Positions 4,260 through 54,610 of a stretch of 64,000 bases of DNA are shown piece after piece (within the stretch, counting starts at the first letter, position 1; each line of letters opens with the position of its first letter). The DNA is taken from the NCBI GenBank assembly GCA_012646185.1, contig GCA_012646185.1_4706.1; one strand, written 5' to 3'. The notes beneath the pieces are model-generated. The model made no database searches and was not told the DNA's origin. It worked only from the letters and a program-made list of their open reading frames with translations. The position numbers and the translations under genes are program-made. This DNA comes from a phage.

Positions 4260-4290
4260 AGTTAGGTAATATAGACCTCAACTTTTTTCC
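4260..4290 (-). promoter_or_regulatory. early-type promoter candidate (CTATATTACC motif)
   Basis: Minus strand reads AAAAAAGTTGAGGTCTATATTACCTAA; same motif at three other sites, all upstream of minus-strand genes. Confidence 0.5.
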
Positions 4291-5078
4291 AATAATGCTG
4301 CAACGTTCCGCGCGAAACGAATTACCTTGTAATTGCGGGTCTGTTTGATATCTTCTTCCCCATCACTGTCACCTTCAGACGGATCTTCCCACATGAAGTC
4401 TTGTTCGTCCGCTTTCTGTAAGTAGCGGTATAACTGCACCATGCTGCGTGCGGTCGGAGAGATAGCGCGAAGCTCATCCAATTCTTCATCCGTGAGCAGA
4501 ACATGCGGTGAACGCAGTGGTTCCATTGTCGTATTACACAACAGACGAATCAGCAGATCGACGCACGGAATAACCGAACCTGGTGAGGCGATTTCTGGGT
4601 GTAATGTATAACCCCAATATACAGTGTTAAAATACGTCAAAACAGCAGGTAGTGACGGATGTTCCATCGCACGGCCAATTTGTTGTCTTACGATAGATGC
4701 ACGATCGTTCAATACATCGAAAGTAATCTGCTGCGGTTCCATAACCGCAAGTGAAATACCGTATGCGTCAGCCACACCCAGGATTTCATGAAGGGCCGAA
4801 CGTTCTTCTTCGGTGGATATTGTCCCGATTGCCTTACGCCCTGCAAGGTCAATCAGCATCGGTGAAACAGCTTCTTTAACCGCATTAAAAGAAGCCTGGT
4901 AAGCGTGTTTGTGAATATACAGCGTCCACGCTAATGCGCGCTCAGCCGCATGAAGCAGATCGACATAAGACAGTTCTTGATGGCATGGGCCATACACACT
5001 CACAGCAAGCTTGGTGGCTTTCTCAGAGGCTTGCATAATAACATCCGGTGATTTAGGCATATCGCGTTCTTCTTGCAT
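4278..5078 (-). CDS. hypothetical protein
   Basis: 266-aa ORF. Confidence 0.55.
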   Translation of the reverse strand: MQEERDMPKSPDVIMQASEKATKLAVSVYGPCHQELSYVDLLHAAERALAWTLYIHKHAYQASFNAVKEAVSPMLIDLAGRKAIGTISTEEERSALHEILGVADAYGISLAVMEPQQITFDVLNDRASIVRQQIGRAMEHPSLPAVLTYFNTVYWGYTLHPEIASPGSVIPCVDLLIRLLCNTTMEPLRSPHVLLTDEELDELRAISPTARSMVQLYRYLQKADEQDFMWEDPSEGDSDGEEDIKQTRNYKVIRFARNVAALLEKS

Positions 5079-5182
5079 CTTTTAAATTCCTACTTAACAA
5101 TAAAGTTCATATACGGCGTATGTATCCGTAGAATAATGAGTTCCGGTAAGATCTTACATCAAAATGACGGCATAAAAAGTAC

Positions 5183-5207
5183 CTCCTTACCCACATGGGT
5201 AAGGAGG
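5183..5207. terminator. hairpin, candidate terminator
   Basis: cctccttaccc acat gggtaaggagg; U-rich on the minus strand after it. Confidence 0.4.
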
Positions 5208-5359
5208 TTCGTCCATCACGACGAAAGGACGTTATGTGACGCGGTGTCCATAACGGCCCTGGTAGCAGGCATCAAAGATAACAAAAAGGATGTAAGTTGA
5301 GCTAAACCACCTAAATACGGTAACGATTACTTCCGTACACAATATAACGCAACATCTTT

Positions 5360-6169
5360 TTACCAATGATTAAAGCTGCCCGCTTTAACGACGTCACAGC
5401 GCAGATGGTTACGTAACTGATCCAGGAAGACAACCGGACTGTCGCCAGACAACATGGCCAGCGCGTGTTGGCCACCGGAACGAACAACAAGCTCATCAAC
5501 CATTGGTGCTGTAATCGGAAGATCATACGCATCCATGATTGCTTTGGCTTCCTGTTCTACGTCTTTCTGGAACCCTTCCATCGTCGGAGAGTCATATTTG
5601 GTTGCAAACTCGATCCCAGGCAAGTTAACGTAATCGTAAGTCATGACACGGGTCATAACACGACGGCGCTCACGTTGCCAGATCTGAGGATCGGTTAACG
5701 CGCGAACCGAAAAACACACGTTCACCAACGGCGTTTCAAAATCTTTACGTAATGGATCACCGTACGGCCCGCAAGGAATAACATCCCCCATCACCATCAC
5801 GACAGGACGACCACGACGATCACGTCCAGCTTCCTCTAGCCAAATCTTAGAAAAACAATGGCTTACCTTCGTTTCTTCGATTCGTAATGCTCGCTGCAAA
5901 AAGCTGGTTGCATCCTGACCGATCTCTGGTTTAGGGTGACCGTATTCACCTTTCAACGAACGATTGCGTGCGTTTGTTTGCAATAAGCTGTTTTCCAGGA
6001 ACAGCGGTTTCGAACGCTCAAGTTCGTAATATTCTTCGGTATTGTTAAAACAGTTAAATCCGCCTATAACACAGGTGTAGGCACCGTCAGCATTAGGACG
6101 GATAATACCTTTCTTATTCACACCAAGATAACTGGTGCAAACAAGATTACTAATTGGTGGTTGCATCAT
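5360..6169 (-). CDS. hypothetical protein
   Basis: 269-aa ORF. Confidence 0.55.
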   Translation of the reverse strand: MMQPPISNLVCTSYLGVNKKGIIRPNADGAYTCVIGGFNCFNNTEEYYELERSKPLFLENSLLQTNARNRSLKGEYGHPKPEIGQDATSFLQRALRIEETKVSHCFSKIWLEEAGRDRRGRPVVMVMGDVIPCGPYGDPLRKDFETPLVNVCFSVRALTDPQIWQRERRRVMTRVMTYDYVNLPGIEFATKYDSPTMEGFQKDVEQEAKAIMDAYDLPITAPMVDELVVRSGGQHALAMLSGDSPVVFLDQLRNHLRCDVVKAGSFNHW

Positions 6170-6248
6170 AACCCCTTTATAAGCAACTGAATGAAAAAAG
6201 CGTTACATTCCCGCTTTTACGTCAAGAAGGTGACGCGTAAGCGTTATA

Positions 6249-6980
6249 TCACCATTCATACGATCCGGCGCACTGATGCCCCAATAGTACCAACGCGTCG
6301 TCTTTGGCAGCCAGGTATTTTTCTAACGTTATCCGTGAAACAGACACATTAGAGAAATCCATCACACCTAAGCGATGATCGTAATGGTTAATTTGCATCC
6401 GGTAATAACCTTTCTTTACCACCAGAAACTCACCTTGACGCAACCATAGCGGAACGTTATCAACCTCCGCATGGATATAAAACACCGGACATTCTGTCGT
6501 AACGGAGTTTTCCTTCCCATCGCTATCTGTAATCTTCCCTTTGGGGACAGCCGCGATAAAACATTCTCCGATACGCTCGGTTTGGTACCCGTTGGGGTAA
6601 CGCGGATCGTGAAACAACCAATGTTCATCGCTAATATCCACATCGGATAATAACGTACGATGTGGACGTAAGGCGATATCAAACGGAACACGATAGATAA
6701 CGTACCCGCCTAACCAATGGGCTAAGTGACCGCCAGAAAAATACTGCTTGATTGCGGTACTGTAGCCGTATATACAACCCATCAAACTGCTGGACACACA
6801 GATCCTTGGAAACGACCCGTCTTCCATACGCAAGGTACGTTGAGGGATACGCGGCATCATCGTTTTCAGTTCGGTATCGGTGCTAATATGCAATAAACCG
6901 AAAGGAAGCGTTTTGCTCGGCACCCACGCACAACGTTCCATAATCGCTCTTGGGACAATAGTCTCGATAGACGATAACAT
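6249..6980 (-). CDS. hypothetical protein
   Basis: 243-aa ORF, tightly packed with neighbours. Confidence 0.55.
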   Translation of the reverse strand: MLSSIETIVPRAIMERCAWVPSKTLPFGLLHISTDTELKTMMPRIPQRTLRMEDGSFPRICVSSSLMGCIYGYSTAIKQYFSGGHLAHWLGGYVIYRVPFDIALRPHRTLLSDVDISDEHWLFHDPRYPNGYQTERIGECFIAAVPKGKITDSDGKENSVTTECPVFYIHAEVDNVPLWLRQGEFLVVKKGYYRMQINHYDHRLGVMDFSNVSVSRITLEKYLAAKDDALVLLGHQCAGSYEW

Positions 6981-6981
6981 A

Positions 6982-7692
6982 TCACCCCCTCAGAATCGCT
7001 TCTGTTTCGCTGATCGTATCCGCAGGATAAACCAAACTACTATCGATTGCGTTATTCACGTAACCACCCATTAAGTTGGTGATGGTGTTTGTACCGCTAT
7101 CGATAATGTTTCGTAATCCGATGTCGATGGCTTTTAAGGTGCTGCGTTCCTCATCCGAAAGCAAACGCCATGCTCGACGACGATCGTTGGGGTCACGTGT
7201 GGTGATAGACGCCAGAACAGAATAGATGCTGCTATCCGCATTCAATTTAACACCAGCCAATTTCGCTGACGTGTAGAGCAGCTGATATTTTTCTTTTTCG
7301 GTGTACCACCACGGCACTTTACCGAGCGTATAGATCTCGTTATACATCAGCCATGGGAAAGAGTTTCGCATCACGACATCGGTTGACACCAACACCGTGT
7401 CGCCGGGAAGAAACACAAATTCATAAAACGGCTGACCATCCATGGTAATCTCACGGATGTCAGATGGGTCGATATGGAGCTGGGTCAATGCGTGGCTGAC
7501 ACCATACTGACCATCAGGAAGAATAATCGGGCAGCACGCACAAACCCGGTTCTCACTCCCGATGATAGATAAACCCAATCCCTCGTAACGGACGGGTGTC
7601 AGAATCGAACACCCGCCACGAGTAACAACAGATTTATCTTCTTGTATGTCCCAGTCCGCAAGCACCGCAGCACCGTTGCGGACAAGCGCCAT
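6982..7692 (-). CDS. hypothetical protein
   Basis: 236-aa ORF abutting neighbours in an operon-like run. Confidence 0.55.
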   Translation of the reverse strand: MALVRNGAAVLADWDIQEDKSVVTRGGCSILTPVRYEGLGLSIIGSENRVCACCPIILPDGQYGVSHALTQLHIDPSDIREITMDGQPFYEFVFLPGDTVLVSTDVVMRNSFPWLMYNEIYTLGKVPWWYTEKEKYQLLYTSAKLAGVKLNADSSIYSVLASITTRDPNDRRRAWRLLSDEERSTLKAIDIGLRNIIDSGTNTITNLMGGYVNNAIDSSLVYPADTISETEAILRG

Positions 7693-9550: not shown

Positions 9551-12500
9551 TTATTTGGCGTCGTTAAAATAAATATCAACAGCTCGTTCCGTTGCGTAGA
9601 GGAGACCAAGATTCACAGTCCCAACCACTTCCGGTGAACCGATGATACGGTTAGCGATACTGGTGCCACTGAAGATAGCATCAAGGGTGTGCCCGTCTTC
9701 GGTTTTGTTCACACCATGACCCACGGAAGAGACAACGGATTTCGCTTGAGCTGCGAAGGTACCTTTATCACCCATCCCCGCACCAAGGTCGTAACGCATG
9801 AAAATACGGATAGCGATCTGGTTCTCGCCTAACGGATTACCGTCTATTCTCACGTTACTGTTATTGATACGCCCCGTAGTTGCTTCGTTGAGTTTCAGTT
9901 CCTTAACGCGTTTAGCTCGTGCTTTATCTGCCTCACCGACGAGCGCTGCCATGGTTTCACTCATATCCTCAATCTGAGCGCGGTACAGTACATCGATCTG
10001 TACAACTTCACCATGAACGTCAGCACGTGGGTTATACTGACTCATACGACGTAATGCTTCAACGGCTTCCTGACTCTCATCACTCAGATCGGTCGCAATC
10101 GGTTCTTCCAGTGTTGCAAGGATCGTTCGTGGTTCAACATGATCGCCGATTTTCACGAGACCACGAATGTTGAGATGGGCGTCAACGATGAGCGTACGGC
10201 TCTTAATCGATGGTGTTACGAGACGATCAGCAAGATTGTCGAAGATATACGAACTGTCCTCGTGAGTCTCTGGAATATCCAGAATACCGACAAGAGACAG
10301 AACACCTGCGCGCCAAACAACCTGACCTGGGTTCCACCAATCGCGTTTAAAATAAAGACGATGGAAAACCACCACATCCTGATCCTTAACGCGATCCCCG
10401 ACTTTATAATCGGTAATGAGATCGTGAGGATAATACTTACCTGGTCCTTTCCCGATTATCGTACCGAGCTGGAAAACCTCTTCCCCTAACTCTGGATCGT
10501 CGTATTGTATCGTAAGCGCAGTTTTGGTGACCTTCTTAACAACACCATCGCCTTGGGCAGCTGCTGCAAAGAGCTTACCAACACGATGCGCGATGACAGT
10601 CTCACCGCCTGTGCGCCATGGTTGTACATCGTAACCTTCAGCAGCAATCATGCGGTTGTGTTGGATCCCGACGAAGACCAGACGTTTTCCATCATCACGG
10701 TCTACAGCCGGAACAGCTAACGCTGACGTACTCATTACCGATGAGATGCCGTCTGTCTTTTCATCGAATGGTCGTGTTTCACCATACACCGACACGATAT
10801 TAGCATTAGGTGCAAGGTAAGCAGAGATACCCACATCCCCACTATCTTTCGTACCCTCTGACACAATACCAACATCGGACTTGTCGTATTCACGATCGCG
10901 TGCGCGTCGAAGCGATGTCTTTGAACGACCCCCGATACCGGTCATCGTTGCTTCTTCACCCTGCTTGATATCCAGCATCGGGTTGGTTTCATCGATCACG
11001 ATGGACGCGCTGTCGTCGAGAATTTGGTTCCAGACGCTTACCGGACTGATTGAGATTTTCTGACGATTTCCTTGACTGCTGTTCTCATTCTGACGAATAG
11101 CGCCAACCAGATCCTTATACACCAATTCAGCGAACTTATCGTACGTTTTAAAACGTTGATAGTTCACATCGTTGGTGTTAGGTGCCCAGTCATCCAGAAG
11201 CAGTTCAACAGCACGCAGTAACAACATGGCGAAATCGGTAGGTTCTCCCATGTTCTGTAGCAACGTACGGCTTACCGGATCAACGAAAAGACGCTCCATG
11301 AGTTCAAGTTCGCGTAAATGACGAACCTTAAGTCCGGCACCATCGACAACGTTAAAATAGATATCTCGATTGTCGAAAGCACCGCGAGCGTAACCGATGT
11401 AGTTACGGTACTCGTTAAATCCGCCCAGCAACAACGTCGTCATGCGATCGTCTTTACTGAAGATCAAACTTTCGTCATCAAAGCTCACCGCGAATTCATC
11501 GGGCGCTAGACCCATACGAGAACCGCGAGGTACCGTACGATAGTTCGCTTTAAGATGTTCTAATAACGGGGTAAGTCCACCCAGATAACTTAGAACAACA
11601 CCAACCGGAATACGTACACCCATGAATTCAAGATCGGCGGCTTCGATCGGCATCTTAGCCGCATTGATACCGAAGAAATCGGGGAACGTCCCTACAGGTG
11701 TTGGTGTTTGTCCTGACTGACAGATATAGAGCTGATTGCGTTTATCGATTGCTAAGAATTCACCCAGCGTGTTACGCGCAAACGTCAGGAGCCCTTCGGC
11801 TAACTGTTCGTTGAACCGATCTTCCCCGATGAACTCCGGCAATGTCTTTGTATCAAGACGTATATCCCAATCAGCAAATTGGATTTGGGTATAGTTGCGT
11901 GCAAGCACAGCGAAGTAATACGGGACTTTGACGGCCGGATCAAAGACGTTACCACGTTTTAACGTGGTTAAGGGCGAAGACTTATCGTAATACATCGCTG
12001 TAAGTTGGCGTGTTAGCCAACGACCGGCGTTATTAACGACACGCTCTGAACGTTTAACAAACACCTTACCGTAGGCGGTACTCAACGCAACTTCGGATGA
12101 TGATACCTTTCTAATAGGTTTATCAACACGTTGTTTACGCATCCGGTATTTGATGCCGTTAACAACATAAATGCCGTCCTTACGAACCTTCGGCAACATC
12201 ACCGGGAACGTGGTTGGGACACCGCCTACAGGAGCCAGTTTAATCGTGATGACTTGATAATCCCCCATCACGTCAACAACATCTTCAACTTTATATCCCG
12301 TGACAGGGTAACCTGCCTGTTGTACGGCAACAACAGCGGCTGCGATGTCCTTTTGCATCACGTGTTCAACGTAATGTTTATCCCACACCGCAAGCGTCGA
12401 TTTACATAGGCTCTTATCGACGATAACATCCGCTTCCGGCATAACCTTTGCTGGCGCTAATTTCGCGGCTTTTGGTTTAACTTCAACATACTCAGCAAGT

Positions 12501-13897
12501 GTTAATCCAGAACCGTCGGGTGCTTCGATTTCGTGAATGGCGTCAGCATTACGCATCGCTGCTTTATATTGGACGCCGCTTAACTGACCCGCATCAGCCA
12601 GATCGCTCGCGCGTACCAACACCGCATCCGATAACGACTGAATATATTCACCGTGTGTTTTCGGTAGCGTTGCTGCGTCAAAGACATCAACCTTTTCTTC
12701 TTCGGTATCGTCGGTAACGACTTCGAAGAGATCGTCGGTAATGTCCTGATCTTCATCGGGTTGGAAATCTGGTTGTACTTCTACCCCGGGTACTTCACGG
12801 ACATCTTCGAACGAGCGTTCTACAATGGCGTTCCACGCATCAGCGTCATCGTCTTCATCCGACCCGCCGACCAACTCCGCTTCTAACTCATCGGGATCAA
12901 GAACGGTAGCCAGATCCTCACCGTTAGGAAGCACGACGTCGCGATCATCATACTCCGCATCCGGGCTGTCTGCAAGAATATCTCGCTCTTGACGAAGAAC
13001 CTGTTCCTCTTCTTGTTTCTGTTCTTCTTCATTCGCACTCTGCGACCACAAACGTGTTACCGCCATCATCCAACGACGCTGGAAGGTTTCAAGTGTCGTT
13101 TTATCGAGTTCTTCCCCTTCCTTAACAAGCCCGGTACGCCATTCCTCCAGCAGGCCCAGATTCAGCGTAAAGAAGTACACACCGTCCGTAAATACAACGT
13201 TAAGCTTATCCAGCGTGGCTCTGTCTAACGAAGCCATCGTACTGTTCTCACGATCGGTTCCCAACCAGCGGAAGAAGTCAAAGAACGACAGCTCCTCCGG
13301 CGTAGCGAAATTCATGAGGTTGTTACGGGTCGGTGCCTGTTGCGTGGTACGCATCAACGAAATCTTCGGCAATGTTGACGGTATACGGAACAACAGAAAG
13401 TGTTGACGATCGCTTTGCTGTGCGATTTCGTTGGCTTTCGACCAAATTGTTTTACGTACGTTGAACCATTCATCATACCAACGGGTGAGCGTTGGACGAT
13501 AAATGTACATGTGGTTAAGATGCGCGTAGTTAGCCACGATCTGAGCGTTGATGTTTTTCTCCACCGTACTTAGATCAGTGACCAAACGAAAACGACGATG
13601 CGATGCACGGTAATCCAGTTTCGCACGCGGTAGCTGGAATCGCTGATCCCGTCGAGGTGCGCCTTGCTTGGTTGCAAGGTCATCCGCGAACGATATCCAA
13701 AGCTGGGCACTTTCTTTGCTCAGCATGTATTCGTTTTCTGGAGGACCTATCAATGATGGATCCGTTGCGGTGTAATGATAGACAGCATAACGCGGCAGCT
13801 GCAATAGCTGCACTAAACGTAATCTCGGTGACAATAGCTCTTGGTAGCGTCTGACACCGAACTGTCGGTAGTAATCAAGGTATTTAAGTTTTGCCAT
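9551..13897 (-). CDS. multisubunit RNA polymerase beta-prime-like subunit, C-terminal part
   Basis: 1448-aa ORF with ATG and GGAG RBS; contains a bridge-helix-like NNAGRWLTRQL (compare E. coli ANSGYLTRRL) and a possible trigger-loop-like TMTGIGG; follows the DFDGD exon. Highly diverged. Confidence 0.5.
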   Translation of the reverse strand: MAKLKYLDYYRQFGVRRYQELLSPRLRLVQLLQLPRYAVYHYTATDPSLIGPPENEYMLSKESAQLWISFADDLATKQGAPRRDQRFQLPRAKLDYRASHRRFRLVTDLSTVEKNINAQIVANYAHLNHMYIYRPTLTRWYDEWFNVRKTIWSKANEIAQQSDRQHFLLFRIPSTLPKISLMRTTQQAPTRNNLMNFATPEELSFFDFFRWLGTDRENSTMASLDRATLDKLNVVFTDGVYFFTLNLGLLEEWRTGLVKEGEELDKTTLETFQRRWMMAVTRLWSQSANEEEQKQEEEQVLRQERDILADSPDAEYDDRDVVLPNGEDLATVLDPDELEAELVGGSDEDDDADAWNAIVERSFEDVREVPGVEVQPDFQPDEDQDITDDLFEVVTDDTEEEKVDVFDAATLPKTHGEYIQSLSDAVLVRASDLADAGQLSGVQYKAAMRNADAIHEIEAPDGSGLTLAEYVEVKPKAAKLAPAKVMPEADVIVDKSLCKSTLAVWDKHYVEHVMQKDIAAAVVAVQQAGYPVTGYKVEDVVDVMGDYQVITIKLAPVGGVPTTFPVMLPKVRKDGIYVVNGIKYRMRKQRVDKPIRKVSSSEVALSTAYGKVFVKRSERVVNNAGRWLTRQLTAMYYDKSSPLTTLKRGNVFDPAVKVPYYFAVLARNYTQIQFADWDIRLDTKTLPEFIGEDRFNEQLAEGLLTFARNTLGEFLAIDKRNQLYICQSGQTPTPVGTFPDFFGINAAKMPIEAADLEFMGVRIPVGVVLSYLGGLTPLLEHLKANYRTVPRGSRMGLAPDEFAVSFDDESLIFSKDDRMTTLLLGGFNEYRNYIGYARGAFDNRDIYFNVVDGAGLKVRHLRELELMERLFVDPVSRTLLQNMGEPTDFAMLLLRAVELLLDDWAPNTNDVNYQRFKTYDKFAELVYKDLVGAIRQNENSSQGNRQKISISPVSVWNQILDDSASIVIDETNPMLDIKQGEEATMTGIGGRSKTSLRRARDREYDKSDVGIVSEGTKDSGDVGISAYLAPNANIVSVYGETRPFDEKTDGISSVMSTSALAVPAVDRDDGKRLVFVGIQHNRMIAAEGYDVQPWRTGGETVIAHRVGKLFAAAAQGDGVVKKVTKTALTIQYDDPELGEEVFQLGTIIGKGPGKYYPHDLITDYKVGDRVKDQDVVVFHRLYFKRDWWNPGQVVWRAGVLSLVGILDIPETHEDSSYIFDNLADRLVTPSIKSRTLIVDAHLNIRGLVKIGDHVEPRTILATLEEPIATDLSDESQEAVEALRRMSQYNPRADVHGEVVQIDVLYRAQIEDMSETMAALVGEADKARAKRVKELKLNEATTGRINNSNVRIDGNPLGENQIAIRIFMRYDLGAGMGDKGTFAAQAKSVVSSVGHGVNKTEDGHTLDAIFSGTSIANRIIGSPEVVGTVNLGLLYATERAVDIYFNDAK

Positions 13898-14101: not shown

Positions 14102-16060
14102 CTACGCTGAGACCGCCTGCATGGATACGTACATCACAGGCTGCTTGCACTTTCATGCAAGAGGAGACTATATCAAACCGGCAGCGCAACCTGCTACGGT
14201 AACCTACACTTCGAAGACGCTCGTCCTCTACAGGGTGGTAAATCCCTTAGTCGTTGAACCTGCGTTGTTTCACATTCTTGTTTGTAAGAATGTCGTATTA
14301 CTACGCAACAACCAGGCTGCTGATTGCCCATTGTTTCGCACCTTAGCACCGCTTACGCGGCTTTTCTTTCAGCCTAAGCCTCTTACGGAGGTAGTGCATC
14401 TCAACTGTTGTTTCTGCCTTTCGGCACCTCATGGGTCGTTGAGCTTTAGGGGTTCCCAGCATTTCGTAGGTTTTTCAAGCACTCCCTTTCGGGAATACCG
14501 GACTCATTATTAGCTTATTTATTCAAGTATCTGAAATCCCACTTATCTTTACGTCGTTTATCGCACTTGATGTCAGGATGATTAACACGATGCCTAATAG
14601 TTGTTGCCGATAGCTGGCTGAGATTCTCAGCAGATCGTGCGCCAAGAACAACGAGTTTTGTGTCGTCTGGACGCGTAACTTCTACTGCCCGATAATGCTT
14701 ACGTAACACATCACGCCAATATTCACGACGTTCTGGTTCAGCATACTCAAGCATGTAACCGTTAACATCTACTAAACCGTAGCTTTCGTTTAATCGAGAG
14801 GTAGCGGCTGGTTTACTAATACCGATTGCTTTAGCCGCATCGACCACGGTTTTATACGGGGTCTCATTACCGTCTCTATCTACAACCACAATGAAATCTG
14901 GACGTGAATCGAGTAGCTGCTGTCTGCGTTCGACGGCTTGTTGATGAAGCACCATGTTAACGTGTTCGAACCCGTAACCTTCTGGACCGTGCCACCCTGG
15001 ATTGTTATTCGCTCGATAAAGTACCGTCGCAGATTTCACTCCAGTCTGACGTGACGCCTCGTTTGCACTATGAACAACCGTGGTAGAGCCGTCAGGGTGA
15101 TATATCCGTATCTGGTTCATTATACCGGAACCAATGAAGTTACCATCAGCTGATTTAATATCCGGCCATGGTTGAGGATCATCTTTGAATTTAACCACCC
15201 AGCGGTTATTAAACAGTTTGACTTTTCGAACATGTTTGCCCATTGTCGTATCCGTAACACCTGCGACTACTGATGCCTGTGTGATACTCAGGTACTCAGT
15301 AACGGTATCGTTCCATGTATCCCAAAGCAGAACCGGTTTATTGTCGTCGCGTAAACCGTATTCGATGGCGTGTAGAACGTTACGACTTCTGGTCGCCCAT
15401 TCAAGATTATCGAGAGAGTAATTCCATTTGTCGGCATCGAGATGATTAACGTCCAACTTATCGACATTAGCCGGATATTCCCGCCACGCCAACATCAAGC
15501 AGCGATGCAGAACCTTAGTTCTCGTTACATCCCGACAATCATGACGTAGACTAATGAATACGTAATTATCCTTTTTCGGATACGATCTACATTCCTGACC
15601 GTCTTTGCGGCGAATAACTCGTCCTTTCTCATTTATCAGATAACGGGTGTGTCCAGGAATGACACGATAACCAGGGTACTTAGCGATTTCGTAAGCAGGC
15701 TCGAACCGATAGGATAAATTATCAACATCCCAGTTAGATTCGTCACCATCAACAAACATCGCTTTGACGTACTTCTGTGTTTCAATATCAACCAGGATGT
15801 TTTTGTGTGCGATACAAATCAATGCTGGGATATTGAATTCACGACCGGCTAAGATAACCATGTCGCCATTTCTCGGTATCACGACGTGGGTATCACGATA
15901 CCGTAAATTTCCATAGCCGTCTATTTCAATCCAGCTTAGAAACGGAATGGATATAAACTCTTTTTCAGATACTCGCCATTTAAACATCTTAATACCTATT
16001 TAATACTAAACATCATATTAATAGGTTTAAAAGTTAAAAATGACAGAAAATGGCTAAATT
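14102..16060 (-). mobile_element. group I self-splicing intron carrying an HNH homing endonuclease gene
   Basis: Canonical P, Q, R, S core elements in correct order on the minus strand: P ~14366-14381 (GGCUGAAA), Q ~14312-14326 (AAUCAGCAGCC), R ~14244-14259 (GUUCAACGACUAAGGG), S ~14163-14176 (UUGAUAUAGUC); P4 and P7 pairings are complementary. 5' splice site not resolved. Confidence 0.7.
14515..15987 (-). CDS. HNH homing endonuclease (intron-encoded)
   Basis: 490-aa ORF with HNH-type motif DVNHLDADKWNYSLDNLEWATRSRNVLHA, a NUMOD4-like N-terminal segment and three helix-turn-helix-like repeats in the C-terminal half. Confidence 0.8.
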   Translation of the reverse strand: MFKWRVSEKEFISIPFLSWIEIDGYGNLRYRDTHVVIPRNGDMVILAGREFNIPALICIAHKNILVDIETQKYVKAMFVDGDESNWDVDNLSYRFEPAYEIAKYPGYRVIPGHTRYLINEKGRVIRRKDGQECRSYPKKDNYVFISLRHDCRDVTRTKVLHRCLMLAWREYPANVDKLDVNHLDADKWNYSLDNLEWATRSRNVLHAIEYGLRDDNKPVLLWDTWNDTVTEYLSITQASVVAGVTDTTMGKHVRKVKLFNNRWVVKFKDDPQPWPDIKSADGNFIGSGIMNQIRIYHPDGSTTVVHSANEASRQTGVKSATVLYRANNNPGWHGPEGYGFEHVNMVLHQQAVERRQQLLDSRPDFIVVVDRDGNETPYKTVVDAAKAIGISKPAATSRLNESYGLVDVNGYMLEYAEPERREYWRDVLRKHYRAVEVTRPDDTKLVVLGARSAENLSQLSATTIRHRVNHPDIKCDKRRKDKWDFRYLNK

Positions 16061-17529
16061 GAATCACCGCCTAAACCGGCGAGGTACGGGGCAGGAACAA
16101 TAGTAGTTTCTACGAATGATGCATTAGGTAACCAGTCGGGGTATTCCCATGCGATAAATCGTTCATCCGTTATTGGTTCCCAGTTACTATCCAGTTCGGT
16201 TTTCGGTTTTGCCGCAACGGTTGTACGTGCGTAACAGGTTAACGGGATAACGGATTGCATACCGGATACCGGATAACGTGTTACCATCGCAGCCAGGTTA
16301 TTCCAGTACTTATAACCAGCGATATAAATAAGCTCGGTGTAAGTAATGGGGTGAACATCCGCACCAGGCTTATTCAACATCTCCGGAGGTAATTCACTCA
16401 TACCACGGAATAACCGAAACGAATCATTGTTCACATAGACGAGGCAAAGATATCGTCCATTGACCATGATAGGCTCGTTACGCACGCCAGGATCGCTTAA
16501 GGTGTTCAGTAAACGTTCTATTCCGTCCCAGGTTGTAAAGTCATCGATGGTGTCTGGATCAAGCGTGACACGTTCACGTTCCATCGTTTCGGTATCAATA
16601 AGTTCAACTTCTGTAACGTCACGAACAAATATTTCCTGCAAAATACCGGTACGTAACGCATGTTGCGTTACTGGGAGAGCAGCTTTACTCATCTGGTATA
16701 ACCCTAACTGAACTGCGGTACAGGAAGGCTGGTTAGGCGACCCTAATACCTCCGTTGTGGGGTTAATTGCCGAAATAACGTTACGGGTTGAGTTCCAAAC
16801 GCGACGTGAACCAAACTTCCCTTGGAAGATCCCTTTCTTACCTTGGAACATATCCAACAACAAAGCGTAGATATCGTTAAACGTTCTCTGTAAGCTCCAG
16901 CGTTGGCCGTCGTAAACGGGATCGGAATAATCTTTTAATCCATCAGGGACGGTGTTAGAAATTGCAAGGAAACGACGATACAACTCCGTGATTTCTTGCT
17001 CGCTTTCATACCCACCTTCTTTTACTTCTATTTCACGTAAACCCGCAGGTAAAACCAGTAGATGACGAGTCATCGCTTTGAACATGTTCTCTTCGACGAC
17101 TTTAATTCGTAGCTCTCGTTGAGCTGAACCCGTTGAAACGAACTTAATATCAGCGACGTGTTGTGCAAAGAACCCGTACCCTGTCTGTCCTGTTAACGCA
17201 TCAGACGCAACGAAGTCGCGTTGTTCAGGATCCCAACGCGCGTACGCCTTCCCCGACATGATATCGCCATAGAGGTGTTTTAGTCGAATGAGACGATCGT
17301 AGATGACAGGATGTAGGATTTCAACCTTGCATTCAATCACCGCAAATCGACGGTCTCGATCTTCACTACCCGCACTACCAAAGATGGTGTATGAATAGAA
17401 ACCGTCATCGTGGAAATTACCGGTGCTTGGATCACGAATGCTCATGCTCGTGATCTTGGGGAGAAAACGTAACTGCTGTTTATCGAGGTGTAAAATACTA
17501 ATATTAAACGGCTCTCTGACTTTAGCCAT
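16054..17529 (-). CDS. RNA polymerase beta-prime-like N-terminal subunit, exon 1
   Basis: Start ATG at 17529 with AGAGGAG RBS (ORF-track start 17571 is an upstream extension). N-terminus FNISILHL...DGFYSYTIFGS aligns with beta-prime FDAIKIAL...DGLFCARIFGP; KGIFQGKFGSRRVWNSTRNVISAINP aligns with the [26 protein letters not shown] region. Frame stops at 16054 inside the presumed intron, so the true 3' end of exon 1 is uncertain. Confidence 0.6.
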   Translation of the reverse strand: MAKVREPFNISILHLDKQQLRFLPKITSMSIRDPSTGNFHDDGFYSYTIFGSAGSEDRDRRFAVIECKVEILHPVIYDRLIRLKHLYGDIMSGKAYARWDPEQRDFVASDALTGQTGYGFFAQHVADIKFVSTGSAQRELRIKVVEENMFKAMTRHLLVLPAGLREIEVKEGGYESEQEITELYRRFLAISNTVPDGLKDYSDPVYDGQRWSLQRTFNDIYALLLDMFQGKKGIFQGKFGSRRVWNSTRNVISAINPTTEVLGSPNQPSCTAVQLGLYQMSKAALPVTQHALRTGILQEIFVRDVTEVELIDTETMERERVTLDPDTIDDFTTWDGIERLLNTLSDPGVRNEPIMVNGRYLCLVYVNNDSFRLFRGMSELPPEMLNKPGADVHPITYTELIYIAGYKYWNNLAAMVTRYPVSGMQSVIPLTCYARTTVAAKPKTELDSNWEPITDERFIAWEYPDWLPNASFVETTIVPAPYLAGLGGDSI

Positions 17530-17774
17530 GGAGACACTCCTCTTTACCACCACCGGCTGCGGCGGTATCATCTGAACACACGAGAGACGTAATGGGTGAT
17601 GGCGTCACCCATCGCTTCCTTGCTTGAGGCGAGGAAGTTACTAGGTTACGTACCTGCCTGATTTTATCAGGTGGGCGATGTGTGAAGTTATGCTTCAACA
17701 TTATCAATGCCGAAGGTAAACTTCGTGCATCACGTTCCAACGTAACATGGGAACGTATCGAACTGGAGGTATAC

Positions 17775-27756: not shown

Positions 27757-27794
27757 CACGTCCTCCTGAAAAAGAAAAAAGAAATACGGCATAA

Positions 27795-27822
27795 AGCCTA
27801 CCCACACAATGGTGGGTAGGCT
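27795..27822 (-). terminator. hairpin, candidate terminator
   Basis: agcctacccac/gtgggtaggct stem with U-rich tract on the minus strand. Confidence 0.45.
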
Positions 27823-27838
27823 AAGATCAACATCGATG

Positions 27839-39544: not shown

Positions 39545-39614
39545 TTATGCCGTCAAGCAAAAAAAAAAATGATAGTCACAGGCTCTCCAATGAAGGAGAG
39601 CCGTGACCGTCAGT

Positions 39615-40316: not shown

Positions 40317-40330
40317 CGAAAGGATCCTTC

Positions 40331-40765: not shown

Positions 40766-41289
40766 TAGTCGGCAAGCGGTTTTACCTTATTAATGGGCAA
40801 CTGTACTTTACCGATGTTCTCTACATCCGCATCAGCGTAGAGAACAATTTTATCATCGTCTCTTTCCCAACGAATAGTAAATCGACCAGGAAGAAGATTA
40901 CTCTGTTCAAGAGACGCAGTAACCTGCTGCGTCAAAACAGACAACCAAGCAGGCATCAATGTTGCAATATCTAAGTCATTTGACCACTCAGCACGTTGCT
41001 CCACTGGGCGTAACATACGTTCGACGGTGCGTTGAACCGTTGCGGTGATATAGCCTTTATCTTCGTCACTGATTGGATCAGGACGAGACACAAAACGTTC
41101 AGCAGGTTTACGGGAAATATGCTCATGCAAATCGATGAGTGGTGTTGTCATAGTACTCGCTCCATCAGAATGTAATTGGGTAACCCGTAGGGTTGTCTGC
41201 ATGCTATTCAGAAGCGCAAAAGCGCCATAAACAACAACGATACCAAGTATAGCCAAAACAGAAATCATTAACGTGTATTGCATTGTCAT
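40756..41289 (-). CDS. small membrane protein
   Basis: N-terminal hydrophobic helix LMISVLAILGIVVVYGAFALL. Confidence 0.5.
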   Translation of the reverse strand: MTMQYTLMISVLAILGIVVVYGAFALLNSMQTTLRVTQLHSDGASTMTTPLIDLHEHISRKPAERFVSRPDPISDEDKGYITATVQRTVERMLRPVEQRAEWSNDLDIATLMPAWLSVLTQQVTASLEQSNLLPGRFTIRWERDDDKIVLYADADVENIGKVQLPINKVKPLADYWV

Positions 41290-41350
41290 CTCCCCCTACA
41301 TACGCATCTTGAAGATCGGTTAAAAACAACAAAAGAAAAAACGATATAAA

Positions 41351-41380
41351 GCAAGGTCCTCTGATATCAGAGGACCTTGG
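41351..41380 (-). terminator. intrinsic terminator hairpin
   Basis: Palindrome caaggtcctctga tat cagaggaccttg followed by a U-rich run on the minus strand, after the 41386..42042 gene. Confidence 0.6.
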
Positions 41381-41385
41381 ATCAA

Positions 41386-42042
41386 TTAGCTTGCAGCTTC
41401 TTCATTTGTATCAGGTTTGCTTCCCCCTAACAAACCGTCAAACAGACCCGTATGTTTCAGGTAGAAGAGAGCGATAGCGCCCATTGCTGCTGCGCTCGTC
41501 GCCGTTAACGCAACCCCGGCACGATACTGCCATTTACGGTCAGGCTTTTGATCGAGAGCCATACGACGCATGTATTCAGCCTCTGCTTCATTCCGATGAA
41601 TTTCGGATTCAGCCAAGCGGGCTAAGGTATCGCGGTCAAGGTTATCATAACGTACGTTCATGGTGGTTTCCTCTTGTTTGGAAGTTGATTGCTTAGTGGA
41701 TTCTTGGTCAACAGTCGTTTCAGATGGTTCAAACGGCTGGTTGTTCATTTTCTGATCTTTATTGGTCATGATAGACTCCTTCAATTTTTGAGACGAAATT
41801 GATTTAAACCATCGTGGATGACGGTATTCAGTTTTACATGTGCAGTTAAGTTTCTCGTGCAGGAAAGCGTAAAAACGTTTTGCGCCTACACGTAAGGCTT
41901 TCAGCATTACCCATCCACGAGCACTCAAACGGTGTAGCTGTTGCGGTATGTCGAGTTTCCTAGCCAAGCGAAAGTATCTTTCAATCACTTCGATAGGAAA
42001 CCATTGTTGTTCCACATCGGTGAGACTGAAAGTCTTATCCAT
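41386..42042 (-). CDS. hypothetical protein with C-terminal hydrophobic segment
   Basis: 218-aa ORF; first gene after the promoter motif at 42074. Confidence 0.5.
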   Translation of the reverse strand: MDKTFSLTDVEQQWFPIEVIERYFRLARKLDIPQQLHRLSARGWVMLKALRVGAKRFYAFLHEKLNCTCKTEYRHPRWFKSISSQKLKESIMTNKDQKMNNQPFEPSETTVDQESTKQSTSKQEETTMNVRYDNLDRDTLARLAESEIHRNEAEAEYMRRMALDQKPDRKWQYRAGVALTATSAAAMGAIALFYLKHTGLFDGLLGGSKPDTNEEAAS

Positions 42043-42067
42043 GAATGAAATCTCGCTGGCTTACTTC

Positions 42068-42100
42068 ACTTAAGTAATATAGCCGTGAAAAATGTTGGAT
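42068..42100 (-). promoter_or_regulatory. early-type promoter candidate (CTATATTAC motif)
   Basis: Minus strand reads CATTTTTCACGGCTATATTACTTAAG. Confidence 0.5.
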
Positions 42101-42192
42101 TAAGTTAAATACCGCAACCGCAGCTAATTTTATAGGCTTTTAGCCTAAACCAATCATCTTCGGAATCATCATCTTTGAAACAGGAATCTATC

Positions 42193-50673: not shown

Positions 50674-50699
50674 ACAAAAGAAAAAGAAATGCTATATAA

Positions 50700-50735
50700 C
50701 CTCCTTCCCTAGCCGTCAAGGCCGGGGAAGGAGGA
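50700..50735. terminator. bidirectional terminator hairpin, family 1 (loop inverted relative to 2558-2594)
   Basis: cctccttccctagcc gtcaa ggccggggaaggagg; inner 21 nt is the exact reverse complement of the inner part of the 2558 hairpin while flanks keep the same orientation. Confidence 0.55.
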
Positions 50736-50749
50736 TTATAGTTTATTTA

Positions 50750-51139
50750 TTAACGCGTTGCATTCTGGATGATTTCTTTTCCGATCTTAACCAAAGCGGG
50801 TATCTGTACAGCGGTTGCGCCTCGATGACGAAACGCGGTCGTTAACGCGGTATCGATACTCACCGCACGTCCGTGAAGACGATCGAAATAGACTTGAGTG
50901 ATTGCGGTAGCGTAATCCTTTCGCTGTTTCTTGGTTTGGCTCAACAGCACCGCACTATGACTAACGATGAAGTAAGCGATTAAGAAGAACGCTGCTGACC
51001 GCGAACCGGGTAGAAAACCTTGTCGCTTAGGGAGCATCTCACAATCGCGAACACTATTATCGTTCGCAAGATCTTCCATATCAACACAGCATAATTTTGC
51101 ATAGGTGTGGAGATAGTGGGTAAAAGTTGAATTTAACAT
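50750..51139 (-). CDS. hypothetical small protein
   Basis: 129-aa ORF, last in a run of small minus-strand genes. Confidence 0.5.
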   Translation of the reverse strand: MLNSTFTHYLHTYAKLCCVDMEDLANDNSVRDCEMLPKRQGFLPGSRSAAFFLIAYFIVSHSAVLLSQTKKQRKDYATAITQVYFDRLHGRAVSIDTALTTAFRHRGATAVQIPALVKIGKEIIQNATR

Positions 51140-51244
51140 TTTCTTTCCTCGATTACAATGAGTTCAATGTATAGCTTAAACGTCACAGAACGACGTATAA
51201 CAGTTTGTTTTAATTTCTAAGGGGTTTCCCTATCTAAGATTGAT

Positions 51245-51607
51245 TTAAAGCGTTCTGAAGAGTTCTGTCGCGTTCTCGTCACGTAAACAGGCTTCGTTCA
51301 ACAATTCAGCTAACAGCTTCGACCGAACTTCAACAAATGTCCTGAGGCGATGCTCCCATTCTAAACGGATGGTGTACGTATTATCCAGGTTTTTGTAATC
51401 AACGACAGATGTAGAACAACGGGCTTCGCGTTTGTTCACGGCACCCCAAACATCACGGATAACCGTCACGCCTTTCTTGGTGCATGTAAACGTTAAAATA
51501 AAGCGATTATTCGCAGCTTCTTCACGGACGCCAACAAATTCACTTCGTAACGATGAGACTTTGATCAGTCGGTCAATAGCTAACGATAAACCGATACGTT
51601 GTTGCAT
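51245..51607 (-). CDS. hypothetical small protein
   Basis: 120-aa ORF. Confidence 0.5.
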   Translation of the reverse strand: MQQRIGLSLAIDRLIKVSSLRSEFVGVREEAANNRFILTFTCTKKGVTVIRDVWGAVNKREARCSTSVVDYKNLDNTYTIRLEWEHRLRTFVEVRSKLLAELLNEACLRDENATELFRTL

Positions 51608-51608
51608 A

Positions 51609-52034
51609 TCAAATCCCCTCTTTCAGAATCTCATTAAGACCGTCAGTAATCCAGTCGAACTTCGTCTTAATCATGGCTGGGTTCAATCCATATACTTCCC
51701 ACACAAGCTGGGGTTTATGTGTTCCATCGTCCAAACAAAGCACATCGATTGAGAGTACCATACCACCCGTCAATTTCATGTTCTCGCAACTACGAAGATA
51801 TGCGGATTCTAGCAATACTTTCCCTAACGCAGTGCAAGCAAATGTTAACCGGGAAGAGTACAGGTACGATGACGTTTTACAGTAGGTTGCTGATATCGGT
51901 TGAATATGTTTGCGGAGTTTGGCGTCTTCACGTAAAAGCAATAACGTGTGATGTAACCGCGTATGCTCGGTAACCGATGAGCTATACTCACCGATACACT
52001 CTTCGGCGACTGATTTAGGCCATTTAATTTTCAT
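51609..52034 (-). CDS. hypothetical small protein, paralogue of 52050..52493
   Basis: N-terminus MKIKWPKSVAEE resembles MEIKFCKSIAIV of the adjacent gene. Confidence 0.5.
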   Translation of the reverse strand: MKIKWPKSVAEECIGEYSSSVTEHTRLHHTLLLLREDAKLRKHIQPISATYCKTSSYLYSSRLTFACTALGKVLLESAYLRSCENMKLTGGMVLSIDVLCLDDGTHKPQLVWEVYGLNPAMIKTKFDWITDGLNEILKEGI

Positions 52035-52049
52035 GTTCGATTCCTCGTA

Positions 52050-52493
52050 TTAACACTGTGTTCCATTCGATAAGCGGGTGGTATCAAAACGATCCAGTTG
52101 GTGTACAATGCTATCAGCAACACGATGCAAATAGTGTATTTTGTCCATTCGTGAAATCGCAGAAATCGTCCAGCAAGCCTCTGACGTCCAATAGGTGCCG
52201 TCTTCACTAAGGCTAACGTTATAAACTAACTTCGTCATCACATTTCTCGCCTTATGCTCAGCAGACCAGAATATGTTTTCTAACACATCCTTCCCCGTTT
52301 GTGAAAACACGAACCCAAGCTTCACGTCGAAGTCGGATGCTTCAAGATTAACGCAGTGAAGATGATTCTCTAACGGCGCAAAAGAGGCTAAACGTTCCAG
52401 CGCATGTTGCAGTGTGGGATGATCGAGCTTTTCGAGATCGTCCACAGGTTGTTCAGGTACAATCGCGATCGATTTACAGAATTTAATTTCCAT
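52050..52493 (-). CDS. hypothetical small protein, paralogue of 51609..52034
   Basis: 147-aa ORF; see neighbouring paralogue. Confidence 0.5.
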   Translation of the reverse strand: MEIKFCKSIAIVPEQPVDDLEKLDHPTLQHALERLASFAPLENHLHCVNLEASDFDVKLGFVFSQTGKDVLENIFWSAEHKARNVMTKLVYNVSLSEDGTYWTSEACWTISAISRMDKIHYLHRVADSIVHQLDRFDTTRLSNGTQC

Positions 52494-52605
52494 GGTAGGT
52501 TCCTCTTGATAGTGGTTGATGATAGTAACGGGGACGGCGATGTCCCCTTGGTTTCTTATTGCCCCGCCCGAACCCGATGGGGTACAGGCGGGTGATGTTG
52601 ATGCG

Positions 52606-53013
52606 TTATAGCGGCATCAGACGTTCTTTAAGTTGGGTTAACTTATTTGCAACGATGTTCTCAACGTCGATCATCTTGTTCATGTTGTCGAGGGTATCCT
52701 GCCAGATGAAAATATCCACGGAACCGGTTCCGACTAACGCGTTCTCAGGACGATGGTCACGGGTCACGTAGCGTGGTCTCTGCGGGCAGGTTTGTAACTC
52801 GATCCAAAGCGCATCTAACGGACCGTGGTCCGTGACACCTAAGGCGAAGAATTCACCTCGTACGACCAGAACATCATCAGCCGTCCTGACACGGGTTGAT
52901 CCTTCGTACACCAATTCCATCTTTGCTCGACAGGCTGGGTTCTCGTTCCACGCCTGGACGGCATCGGCAAGGGCTATTGACGTTGCGGTGGTGTTCGTTT
53001 GATCATGTTGCAT
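52606..53013 (-). CDS. hypothetical small protein
   Basis: 135-aa ORF. Confidence 0.5.
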   Translation of the reverse strand: MQHDQTNTTATSIALADAVQAWNENPACRAKMELVYEGSTRVRTADDVLVVRGEFFALGVTDHGPLDALWIELQTCPQRPRYVTRDHRPENALVGTGSVDIFIWQDTLDNMNKMIDVENIVANKLTQLKERLMPL

Positions 53014-53091
53014 TCTAAGCTCCTCAATCGTTCTACAACGAACTTTTAATGGAAGGGAATATGTTTCCCTTCCTTGGGTTAGGTTATTGCG

Positions 53092-53367
53092 TTACACGGC
53101 TTTACAGCTTGCGTAAACCACAACTGTTCCGTTGTTGATTGCTTCAACCACATCCCGGGTTAACACAACGGCGTTATCGCTTCGAGACGACGGTGCGTAA
53201 TACCCTTCACCGTTCTCGGTAATCAGGCGATAACGGACTAAGCCTATGCTCGGTTCAACACGTAGCACCTTCTCAAGTTTGTATTTGATGATCTTCGTCA
53301 GGCTGACTGTGTCTGACGCGTAGATTGCTTTATAAACCTTGTTCTTTGCTGTCGGTTTCATCAACAT
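53092..53367 (-). CDS. hypothetical small protein
   Basis: 91-aa ORF. Confidence 0.45.
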   Translation of the reverse strand: MLMKPTAKNKVYKAIYASDTVSLTKIIKYKLEKVLRVEPSIGLVRYRLITENGEGYYAPSSRSDNAVVLTRDVVEAINNGTVVVYASCKAV

Positions 53368-53407
53368 GATTTCTGTTGTATTTTCCTTTTCGCTTGTTGG
53401 TGTTGGA

Positions 53408-53707
53408 TTAAGGTTTAGGTTCCGTTTTGTATTGTGCGAGTAATGTGTTGATCTGCTCCCGTTGTTCTTTTAAGTATGCGGGAAGCTGGTCTTCCCGTAC
53501 CGTTCCGATTTCCAACGTGATGTACCAGCGTTGTTCGGAAGCCTGCCATTGAAAACTGCTCTGTAGCCGTAGGATGCTAGGATCACGTACCTTGCTTGCA
53601 CTGTAGTGATCGAACCAATCCAGGTATTCTGCTTTCCCTTCCTCATCGGCAACGTAACGCTGCACGCTGTTCTTCCCTTTGTTTTCGTATCCCGTTGCAC
53701 GTATCAT
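53408..53707 (-). CDS. hypothetical small protein
   Basis: Start reassigned to ATG at 53707, forming an ATGA overlap with the upstream stop. Confidence 0.45.
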   Translation of the reverse strand: MIRATGYENKGKNSVQRYVADEEGKAEYLDWFDHYSASKVRDPSILRLQSSFQWQASEQRWYITLEIGTVREDQLPAYLKEQREQINTLLAQYKTEPKP

Positions 53708-54486
53708 GCGAACGTTTCTCCTGTAATGTGTTGCGGATGGCGTAGCATGGTAGCATCCCATTGTACGATCCGGCTCCGGCTTACCAGCATCATGACGGAT
53801 TCATCGTCAAGCCCTGGCTGCGCAACCGGCAACCAACGTTCGTTAAGCACCTTCGCTTCAACACGTTTCTTGCGGGGATTGTAGCGCACTTCGCTAACCC
53901 AAGCGAATCCAAGTGGATGCACAACCCGTGGATAATACATGCGAAGCAATTGATGCATCCGATCCGTTGCCTCCAGATTGCAATCCACCATGTAAGGTTT
54001 CACCATGGTAAGCTTTTTGGTGTAATACGTTCCAACGGTATGGTTACGCCAACTTGGCAAGGCATGATCCCCTTCTCTCAGTTTGCTATCCGAGTTCATC
54101 GGCCAGACCTGCTGTTTACCGGCCAGCATCGCGTACTGCCGATCAACGCAACGAACCTGATCGGCGAACAATGGATCCAGAACATCATCCACCGCACCCT
54201 TATTGCGATAACCGTGATGTACCACCAACCTGCTTGCGCTCATCGATGCGGGATGCTGGCTCTTATGCGCATACAGCCCACCGTCACCGCGAGGGTCGTA
54301 AAGATAGCCGCATGCGCCACGCCATATCACCTTGCCTACGGTTCTCTCGTTTTCAAGCAGCATCGTCGGCCCATCAAGCAAATTGGTGAACCACTGCACC
54401 TTCACGCATTCCGCTTGGACATGCTCAGGTAATGCCTGATACTCTTTTTGGGTGTATAAGGTATCAAAAATGATTTCATCGTTCAT
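53704..54486 (-). CDS. hypothetical protein
   Basis: 260-aa ORF with GAGGAA RBS; first gene after the promoter motif at 54577. Confidence 0.55.
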   Translation of the reverse strand: MNDEIIFDTLYTQKEYQALPEHVQAECVKVQWFTNLLDGPTMLLENERTVGKVIWRGACGYLYDPRGDGGLYAHKSQHPASMSASRLVVHHGYRNKGAVDDVLDPLFADQVRCVDRQYAMLAGKQQVWPMNSDSKLREGDHALPSWRNHTVGTYYTKKLTMVKPYMVDCNLEATDRMHQLLRMYYPRVVHPLGFAWVSEVRYNPRKKRVEAKVLNERWLPVAQPGLDDESVMMLVSRSRIVQWDATMLRHPQHITGETFA

Positions 54487-54569
54487 TTAAAAAGTTCCTC
54501 TGTTTTTCACGTTAATTAAACAACGTATTGATTTCTATTTGACGCAATACGAACATTGTACGTATGCAT

Positions 54570-54610
54570 CACTAAGGTAATATAGTCGTGAAAGGATTTG
54601 TGTTACAGAA
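54570..54610 (-). promoter_or_regulatory. early-type promoter candidate (CTATATTACC motif)
   Basis: Minus strand reads AATCCTTTCACGACTATATTACCTTAG. Confidence 0.5.

Follow-up and report, generated by a model that had tools for sequence, protein, structure and literature searches.

To begin with, the analysed DNA (the window) was a stretch of 64,000 nt from a phage (GenBank assembly GCA_012646185.1, contig GCA_012646185.1_4706.1), which was collinear with the genome of Escherichia phage vB_EcoM_Goslar (MK327938, 237,307 bp), shared 96.3% identity with it and corresponded to Goslar positions 197,676-237,302 followed by 1-24,493. Goslar belongs to the Chimalliviridae and is a jumbo phage that forms a nucleus in E. 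coli. The subject of the analysis was a short repeated element of this window, interpreted here as an early promoter read by the virion RNA polymerase (vRNAP). The sequence GTAATATAG, which reads CTATATTAC on the minus strand, was present in four copies, at plus-strand positions 4266, 28955, 42074 and 54577. These were the places reported in an initial annotation of the same DNA, made from the sequence alone, and all four were recovered there, compared with a mean of 0.39 and a maximum of 2 copies in dinucleotide-preserving shuffles.

The likeness among the four sites spanned about 38 nt (tAat.cAaa...tTTcAcG.CTAtATTACcTa.gTGA). On the minus strand, an A/T-rich tract was followed by TTTCACG, TTGAGG or ACAGG, then by CTATATTAC, a 4-nt spacer (C/T-T-N-N) and (G/C/A)TGAT. 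The core TATATTAC was exact at all four sites, and the A/T tract and T-rich block ahead of it followed the consensus tAat.cAaa...tTTcAcG.C. When a matrix of these 38 nt was run over the window, it matched exactly the four sites with scores from 42 to 54, while the maximum reached across 20 shuffled Goslar genomes was 15. After the spacer, the initiator-like sequences of sites 1-4 were CTGA, ATGA, GTGA and GTGA, the spacing being borrowed from the phiKZ tables of transcription start sites (TSSs), and the predicted 5′ untranslated regions measured 116, 84, 24 and 83 nt, with starts placed by homology. The flanking consensus proposed in the initial annotation was broadly shared by the sites, although the base before CTATATTAC at site 1 was T instead of A/G, and the core was followed by CTAA at site 1 and CTTC at site 2 instead of (C)TTA. 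A fifth TATATTAC at 28122 (minus strand) was rejected as a chance match, as it lay within an open reading frame (ORF) and lacked the flanking similarity. Rfam and tRNA scans returned nothing at the four sites. Furthermore, the A-rich upstream half of promoter 1 (4275-4294) shared bases with the last codons and the stop of the late gene at 4278-5078. The reverse complement of promoter 2 (28937-28964, plus strand) contained a 10/12 sigma-70-like match (ATGACA-16-TATAGT) facing the plus-strand late gene at 28997, a match that probably arises only because the core is AT-rich.

The whole Goslar record, with 247 coding sequences, was then scanned with the motif matrix. Strong sites (scores 28-55) numbered 12, and two weak ones kept a CTACAT(T/A)ACC core; the minus strand carried all 14. 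Of the strong sites, 11 were intergenic, compared with 7% of the genome. One strong site, at Goslar 49716-49753, fell near the start of the annotated 62-aa gp047 (Goslar_00047, 49584-49772), inside its first 16 codons; in this gene either the start codon was probably mis-called or the ORF is probably spurious. A variant core was found in six of the 14 sites (five with TACATTAC and one with TACATAAC), including the orthologue of window site 4. From promoter to start codon, the identity between the window and Goslar was 197/199 for site 1, 138/138 for site 2 and 139/139 for site 3, compared with 96.3% overall, and both mismatches of site 1 were upstream of its 38-nt site. Given this near-identity, the transfer of Goslar evidence to the window was considered safe for sites 1-3. 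Site 4 had three differences to Goslar inside the 38 nt, where Goslar presents the TACATTAC core and CATGAT; its TATATTAC core was found in two other Goslar-like contigs of the IMG/VR database. In that database, a 19-nt pattern matched only Goslar and two contigs about 95-97% identical, and a shorter pattern gave mostly random matches, with the extended motif kept only in Goslar-like contigs. Moreover, an unbiased 8-mer enrichment of Goslar intergenic DNA was dominated by A/T runs and terminator-stem words and not by the promoter, because the latter has only about 14 copies.

The link between the element and early expression was examined with published Goslar data. Knockdown of the nuclear-shell protein ChmA halts Goslar at the early-infection (EPI) vesicle that carries vRNAP, and the resulting transcriptome matches that of early infection, the authors crediting transcription at this stage to the virion polymerase (Armbruster et al., bioRxiv 10.1101/2023.09.20.558163). 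The per-gene log2 fold changes (log2FC, knockdown versus control) were taken from Supplementary Table 2 of that work, and genes with a log2FC above -2, the authors' threshold, were considered retained. A total of 146 Goslar genes were retained, which equals the authors' count, forming nine runs on the minus strand (GenBank numbering 1-4, 14-21, 37-40, 44-47, 70-75, 94-159, 162-210, 219-221 and 235-236). A motif site lay directly upstream of the start of all nine (P = 2.5e-13, for 14 sites and 247 junctions), and the other five Goslar sites fell within the two long runs, one of them upstream of chmA. The part of Goslar equivalent to the window (gp217-gp249 and gp001-gp028) presented exactly four early runs, each beginning at one of the four sites (Table 1). 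The genes just upstream of the orthologous Goslar sites were 10- to 100-fold down in the vesicle-arrested infection; as genes without the motif are down at this stage, whatever transcribes there uses the motif selectively. The initial annotation had placed each site ahead of the first gene in a run of minus-strand genes. This was literally true for sites 2 and 3, in divergent intergenic regions, but not for site 1, whose upstream neighbour (4278-5078) has the same minus-strand orientation, nor for site 4, where a minus-strand ORF (55335-56228) follows beyond a 0.85-kb gap. What the four sites have in common is instead their place ahead of the gene that opens an early transcription unit.

The opposite ends of these units were marked by hairpins, present at the end of all four early units, where the RNA-seq class switches. 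They were recognised by reading the sequence, having TTAT-type tails, and were missed by a simple terminator scan. In Goslar, an extra terminator is annotated after gp004, where read counts drop by about half. The window terminators resemble the conserved phiKZ terminator, which consists of a pyrimidine-rich stem and then TTATKYYGT (PMC10914365). Further hairpin terminators were observed at 39515-39553 (plus strand), 43680-43705 (plus strand) and 55287-55318. The terminator stems were mostly pyrimidine-rich (CCTTCC.../...GGAAGG) with a TTAT(G/A)-type tail, and their stem words were the most intergenic-enriched Goslar 8-mers after the A/T runs.

Table 1. Coordinates of the putative promoters, early units, terminators and virion polymerase genes in the window, with the log2FC of the Goslar orthologues on either side of each site (ChmA knockdown versus control)
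Feature	Coordinates	Strand	Sequence, genes or family	log2FC in Goslar
Putative early promoter 1	4257..4294	-	TATTGGAAAAAAGTTGAGGTCTATATTACCTAACTGAT; core 4273-4266; predicted TSS ~4258; 38-nt matrix score 42.3	downstream gp221 +0.9 to +1.3; upstream gp222 -3.3 to -4.3
Putative early promoter 2	28946..28983	-	TATTGAAAAAAATAACAGGACTATATTACCTTCATGAT; core 28962-28955; predicted TSS ~28947; score 42.6; divergent intergenic region	downstream gp236/gp235 about +0.5 to +0.6; upstream gp237 -3.4 to -5.5; flanking gp237 and gp234 together -3.2 to -5.5
Putative early promoter 3	42065..42102	-	TAATCCAACATTTTTCACGGCTATATTACTTAAGTGAA; core 42081-42074; predicted TSS ~42066, 24 nt before the ATG at 42042; score 54.0	downstream gp004 +1.2 to +1.3; upstream gp005 -5.3 to -7.6
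Putative early promoter 4	54568..54605	-	TAACACAAATCCTTTCACGACTATATTACCTTAGTGAT; core 54584-54577; predicted TSS ~54569; score 49.6	downstream gp021 +1.2 to +1.4; upstream gp022 -4.0 to -5.4
Early unit 1	2536..4258	-	ORFs 3663-4142, 3146-3559, 2607-3146; Goslar gp221-gp219	
Unit 1 terminator hairpin	2594-2536	-	CCTTCCTTCCC...GGGAAGGAAGG, then TTAATATGC-T10	
Early unit 2	27774..28947	-	ORFs 28348-28863, 27839-28396; Goslar gp236, gp235	
Unit 2 terminator hairpin	27821-27774	-	GCCTACCCAC/GTGGGTAGGC, then TTTATGCCGT; ATG of a late gene next at 27756	
Early unit 3	39559..42066	-	ORFs 41386-42042, 40756-41289, 40331-40765, 39615-40316; Goslar gp004-gp001	
Unit 3 terminator hairpin	39607-39559	-	GGCTCTCC/GGAGAGCC, then T-run	
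Early unit 4	50680..54569	-	eight ORFs, 53704-54486 down to 50750-51139; Goslar gp021-gp014	
Unit 4 terminator hairpin	50734-50680	-	CCTCCTTCCC...GGGAAGGAGG, then TTATATAGC	
Virion RNA polymerase subunit gene	6982..7692	-	Goslar GenBank gp225 = RefSeq gp210; phrog_2926, virion structural protein	
Virion RNA polymerase large subunit gene	9551..13897	-	gp228 = RefSeq gp207; phrog_3148, RNA polymerase beta subunit, 1389 bits	
Virion RNA polymerase subunit gene	16054..17571	-	gp231 = RefSeq gp205; phrog_2986, E = 3e-161	
Virion RNA polymerase subunit gene	31024..31698	-	gp240 = RefSeq gp196; phrog_3233, E = 1e-65	

The element was subsequently compared with the early promoters of phiKZ, whose core is TATATTAC, the consensus in 201phi2-1 being TTAWTAVAA_HYWTTTRARR_BTATATTACDWHDGTG (PMC7058600). 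In these phages an AT-rich element near -10 of the early TSSs has been assigned to the virion polymerase (PMC7598289; PMC8244752; PMC10914365). The phiKZ promoter is described as an extended -10 box with a T-rich motif upstream of -19 (PMC8244752), the early promoter of 201phi2-1 is conserved at -10, -20 and -30, and about 28-32 phiKZ early sites have been mapped by primer extension, differential RNA sequencing (dRNA-seq) and ONT-cappable-seq. A matrix was built only from nine phiKZ early promoters with mapped TSSs, taken from the supplementary data of Putzeys et al. (bioRxiv version); in these promoters, transcription starts 7-8 nt past the last C of the core, on (G/T)TG(A). Over all window positions on both strands, the four sites occupied ranks 1 to 4 (site 3, 21.4; site 1, 18.0; site 2, 13.2; site 4, 13.1). 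As controls, true promoters scored 10.4-36.6 when left out one at a time, and the maxima of shuffled windows had a mean of 9.1 and a peak of 15.3. The resemblance to the phiKZ early promoter, which the initial annotation had pointed out, was thus supported both by the identical TATATTAC core and by a matrix derived from phiKZ only.

Regarding the polymerase, four of the five Goslar vRNAP subunit genes had orthologues in the window, according to PHROG matches and the numbering map (Table 1), and three ORFs (9551-13897, 16054-17571 and 31024-31698) matched PHROG families named RNA polymerase beta subunit, while Pfam gave no match in the window polymerase ORFs. All five vRNAP subunits, gp078 in addition to the four of Table 1, have been found in Goslar virions by mass spectrometry (10.64898/2026.04.21.720040), and the four genes of the window are presumed to encode part of the polymerase reading the promoters. 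A complete group I intron (Rfam RF00028, 56.3 bits) was observed at 14144-14530 (minus strand), adjoining an HNH homing-endonuclease ORF at 14515-15987 (minus strand); both sit between the vRNAP subunit genes at 16054-17571 and 9551-13897. As for the gene numbers, the Goslar RefSeq tags HOV27_gpN equal the GenBank numbers only up to 186, beyond which they are reversed, as gp(435-N) for N = 188-228 and gp(436-N) for N = 230-249; due to this divergence, chimallin is called gp189 or gp246 in different papers. Moreover, some 50-55 bp are repeated at both ends of the Goslar record and the window reads straight through the junction (39520-39569), so that the start of the record looks like an arbitrary assembly cut instead of a physical genome end at that spot.

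Taken together, the four sites are interpreted, with a probability of about 90%, as early promoters of the phiKZ type, recognised in this Goslar-like chimallivirus by the virion RNA polymerase. In the proposed mechanism, the virion-packaged multisubunit polymerase would recognise, after injection, a composite element of about 38 bp, in which an A/T-rich tract lies around -30/-20, a TTTCACG-like block comes next, the TA(T/C)ATTAC core occupies about -15 to -8 and (G/C/A)TGA would act as the initiator. Transcription would start 7-8 nt past the core, at the minus-strand positions listed in Table 1, equivalent to Goslar 201929, 226680, 2552 and 15052, and each promoter would drive a short unit of two to eight small early genes ending at a hairpin terminator. 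The implication of the initial annotation, transcription by a virion-packaged polymerase, was supported by the vRNAP genes encoded in the window and by the expression of the downstream Goslar orthologues at the vesicle stage; direct reading of the four sites by this enzyme is suggested by homology with phiKZ and by the authors' interpretation of that stage, and the exact start positions in the window phage are likewise predictions.

Several points weigh against this interpretation. With the phiKZ matrix, sites 2 and 4 taken singly (13.2 and 13.1) are within the range of the shuffled-window maxima. The expression table comes from the 96%-identical Goslar and from a single time point (30 min), and the strandedness of the library is left unstated in the accessible part of that source. 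The subunit genes of the non-virion RNA polymerase (nvRNAP) are themselves early, and the exclusion of nvRNAP from the DNA of the early vesicle was deduced by the authors of that study. Besides, the start positions are predicted by homology, the sole Goslar TSS statement being a chmA TSS sequence that begins 91 nt upstream of the ATG. Finally, site 4 passes a loose sigma-70 scan (GTAACA-16-TATATT, 9/12).

The early expression of the nvRNAP subunit genes bears on an alternative in which the non-virion phage polymerase reads the sites, which would then be middle-class promoters or be shared by the two phage polymerases. Since these genes are early, nvRNAP must exist in ChmA-knockdown cells; in addition, the genes downstream of the sites are detected throughout infection (bioRxiv 10.1101/2023.09.20.558163), and phiKZ chmA carries both an early and a middle promoter (PMC8244752). 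However, other motifs are published for the middle promoters of phiKZ (TACT at about -22, preceded by an A-rich repeat) and for its late promoters (TATG at +1) (PMC7598289, PMC8244752), neither element was found at those positions in the four sites, the downstream genes belong to the early class, and the selective use of the motif at the vesicle stage described above also argues against this alternative, which was judged very improbable. The same low standing was given to a reading of the sites as ordinary sigma-70 promoters of the host, in which TATATT would be the -10 hexamer and E. coli RNA polymerase would act right after injection. TATATT does match TATAAT at five of six positions, and the site 4 match has been mentioned, but a scan of all four regions gave no acceptable -35 hexamer at 16-18 bp for sites 1-3, and the conservation over about 38 nt includes positions without a sigma-70 role (...TTTCACGnC before the core and AC-N4-GTGA after it). 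Moreover, the element is homologous to the phiKZ promoters, which are assigned to the virion polymerase (PMC7598289) in a phage whose transcription is host-independent (PMC10914365), and the injected Goslar genome is transcribed within a membrane vesicle carrying vRNAP (bioRxiv 10.1101/2023.09.20.558163). Sigma-70 was therefore rejected as a general explanation, leaving only the weak match at site 4.

The least probable alternative of all was that the repeat is not a promoter but a chance repeat, a regulator binding site or an RNA-level 5′ element. In its favour, the conserved GTGA and some downstream hairpins would be transcribed, 5′ structure is strong at sites 1 and 2 (z about -3.5), and the hairpin of site 4 is kept via paired substitutions. 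Against it, chance was ruled out by the shuffles, the 38-nt matrix and the phiKZ matrix, the conservation is mostly upstream of the start position mapped in phiKZ, and a motif at the 5′ boundary of every early block behaves as a promoter. A 5′ hairpin as a defining part of the element was rejected, as, across the 14 Goslar sites, the first 45 nt showed no excess of structure over 45-mers drawn at random from the genome (p = 0.49). The hairpin just past predicted TSS 4 (54530-54568, minus strand, versus Goslar 15013-15051) showed conserved pairing with substitutions on both arms (GCATACG...CGTATTGC in the window and AGATACG...CGTATTCT in Goslar).

Upstream of promoter 4, about 0.7 kb (54610-55335) without any ORF longer than 51 aa separated it from a late gene, and the same gap was present at Goslar 14971-15826. 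It contained six GTTATC/GATAAC hexamers within 415 bp, several inverted repeats, two near-repeats of about 19 nt (AGTTATCcAaCTTATAAGC and AGTTATCaAgCTATAAGC) and the terminator-like, GC-rich hairpin at 55287-55318, and had no Rfam match. This gap could be an origin or a regulatory region. Over the whole window, GTTATC/GATAAC occurred 93 times versus 35.7 expected from dinucleotide shuffles, a 2.6-fold excess spread throughout.

The comparison was extended to the family by anchoring it on chmA in GenBank phages. Goslar gp189 was identified as the nuclear-shell protein from its tblastn matches, which carry this annotation in phiKZ, PhiPA3, RAY and further phages and have identities of about 22-25%. 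In the 200 nt upstream of this gene, a TATATTAC element was found in Goslar, phiKZ, Eowyn, RAY and RSL2, and TATATCAC in PhiPA3 and Noxifer; in all seven phages it had an A/T tract ahead and (G/T)TG past a 4-nt spacer. Both window site 1 and the Goslar chmA promoter showed 29/37 identity to phiKZ P028, an early promoter whose TSS has been mapped to 45583. Tentatively, therefore, the early promoter may be a near-universal chimallivirus signal, and very distant virion polymerases may read each other's promoters, because the chmA promoters of Goslar and phiKZ share 29 of 37 positions despite a protein identity of about 24%; on balance this was thought rather unlikely. If true, it would offer a portable, host-independent expression signal for engineering nucleus-forming phages, and the two upstream flavours of the Goslar-like sites (a phiKZ-like A-run, or TAATCCAAC/TTTCACGGC) would tune strength or timing within the early class.

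The promoter type itself is already known from phiKZ, and such a motif is expected in every jumbo phage encoding its RNA polymerases (PMC7598289), so the finding is correct but ordinary, with nothing conceptually new. A literature search of the searchable library found no paper stating the Goslar early promoter sequence. Among nucleus-forming phages, Goslar serves as the E. coli model, and the motif together with the public RNA-seq table allows 14 sites to account for the nine early blocks (146 genes). The resulting map shows which genes belong to each early unit, where insertions or reporters could be placed for vesicle-stage expression, and which sequence to mutate in tests of the polymerase.

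Among known systems, bacterial sigma-70 promoters share with the four sites an AT-rich, TATAAT-like hexamer at about -10; in contrast, the four-site element has no conserved -35, its conserved positions extend beyond what sigma-70 reads, and no sigma factor is expected. The vRNAP promoters of coliphage N4 are DNA hairpins. N4 differs in that its vRNAP is a giant single-subunit enzyme, whereas the Goslar-type enzyme is multisubunit and the promoter itself has no conserved hairpin. What is shared is a co-injected polymerase reading few phage-specific early promoters in E. coli (PMC4496689, PMC12633501). Closer to the element are the motifs of 201phi2-1, OBP, N1M2 and EL, which have in common with it a TTAAT-like start, a T-run, a purine-rich block, TATATTAC (TACATTAT in EL) and N4-GTG. 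However, in OBP, N1M2 and EL the core ends in TAT instead of TAC, and those motifs are only predicted, while the orthologous Goslar sites are tied to RNA-seq. With respect to phiKZ, about half of the Goslar-type sites have TAATCCAAC/TAACACAAATCC in place of the A-run, TTTCACGGC is favoured where phiKZ has TTTGAGAT, and variant cores are frequent in Goslar, with TACATTAC or, in one case, TACATAAC at 6 of its 14 sites. Goslar also has 14 sites versus about 30, longer units of up to about 29 kb, E. coli as its host and proteins only about 24% identical. On the other hand, the two share an identical 8-nt core, an A-run/T-run and a TTT(G/C)A(G/C) block upstream, a 4-nt spacer followed by (G/T)TGA, where phiKZ transcripts begin, a position before early genes including chmA, and a bias to a single strand.

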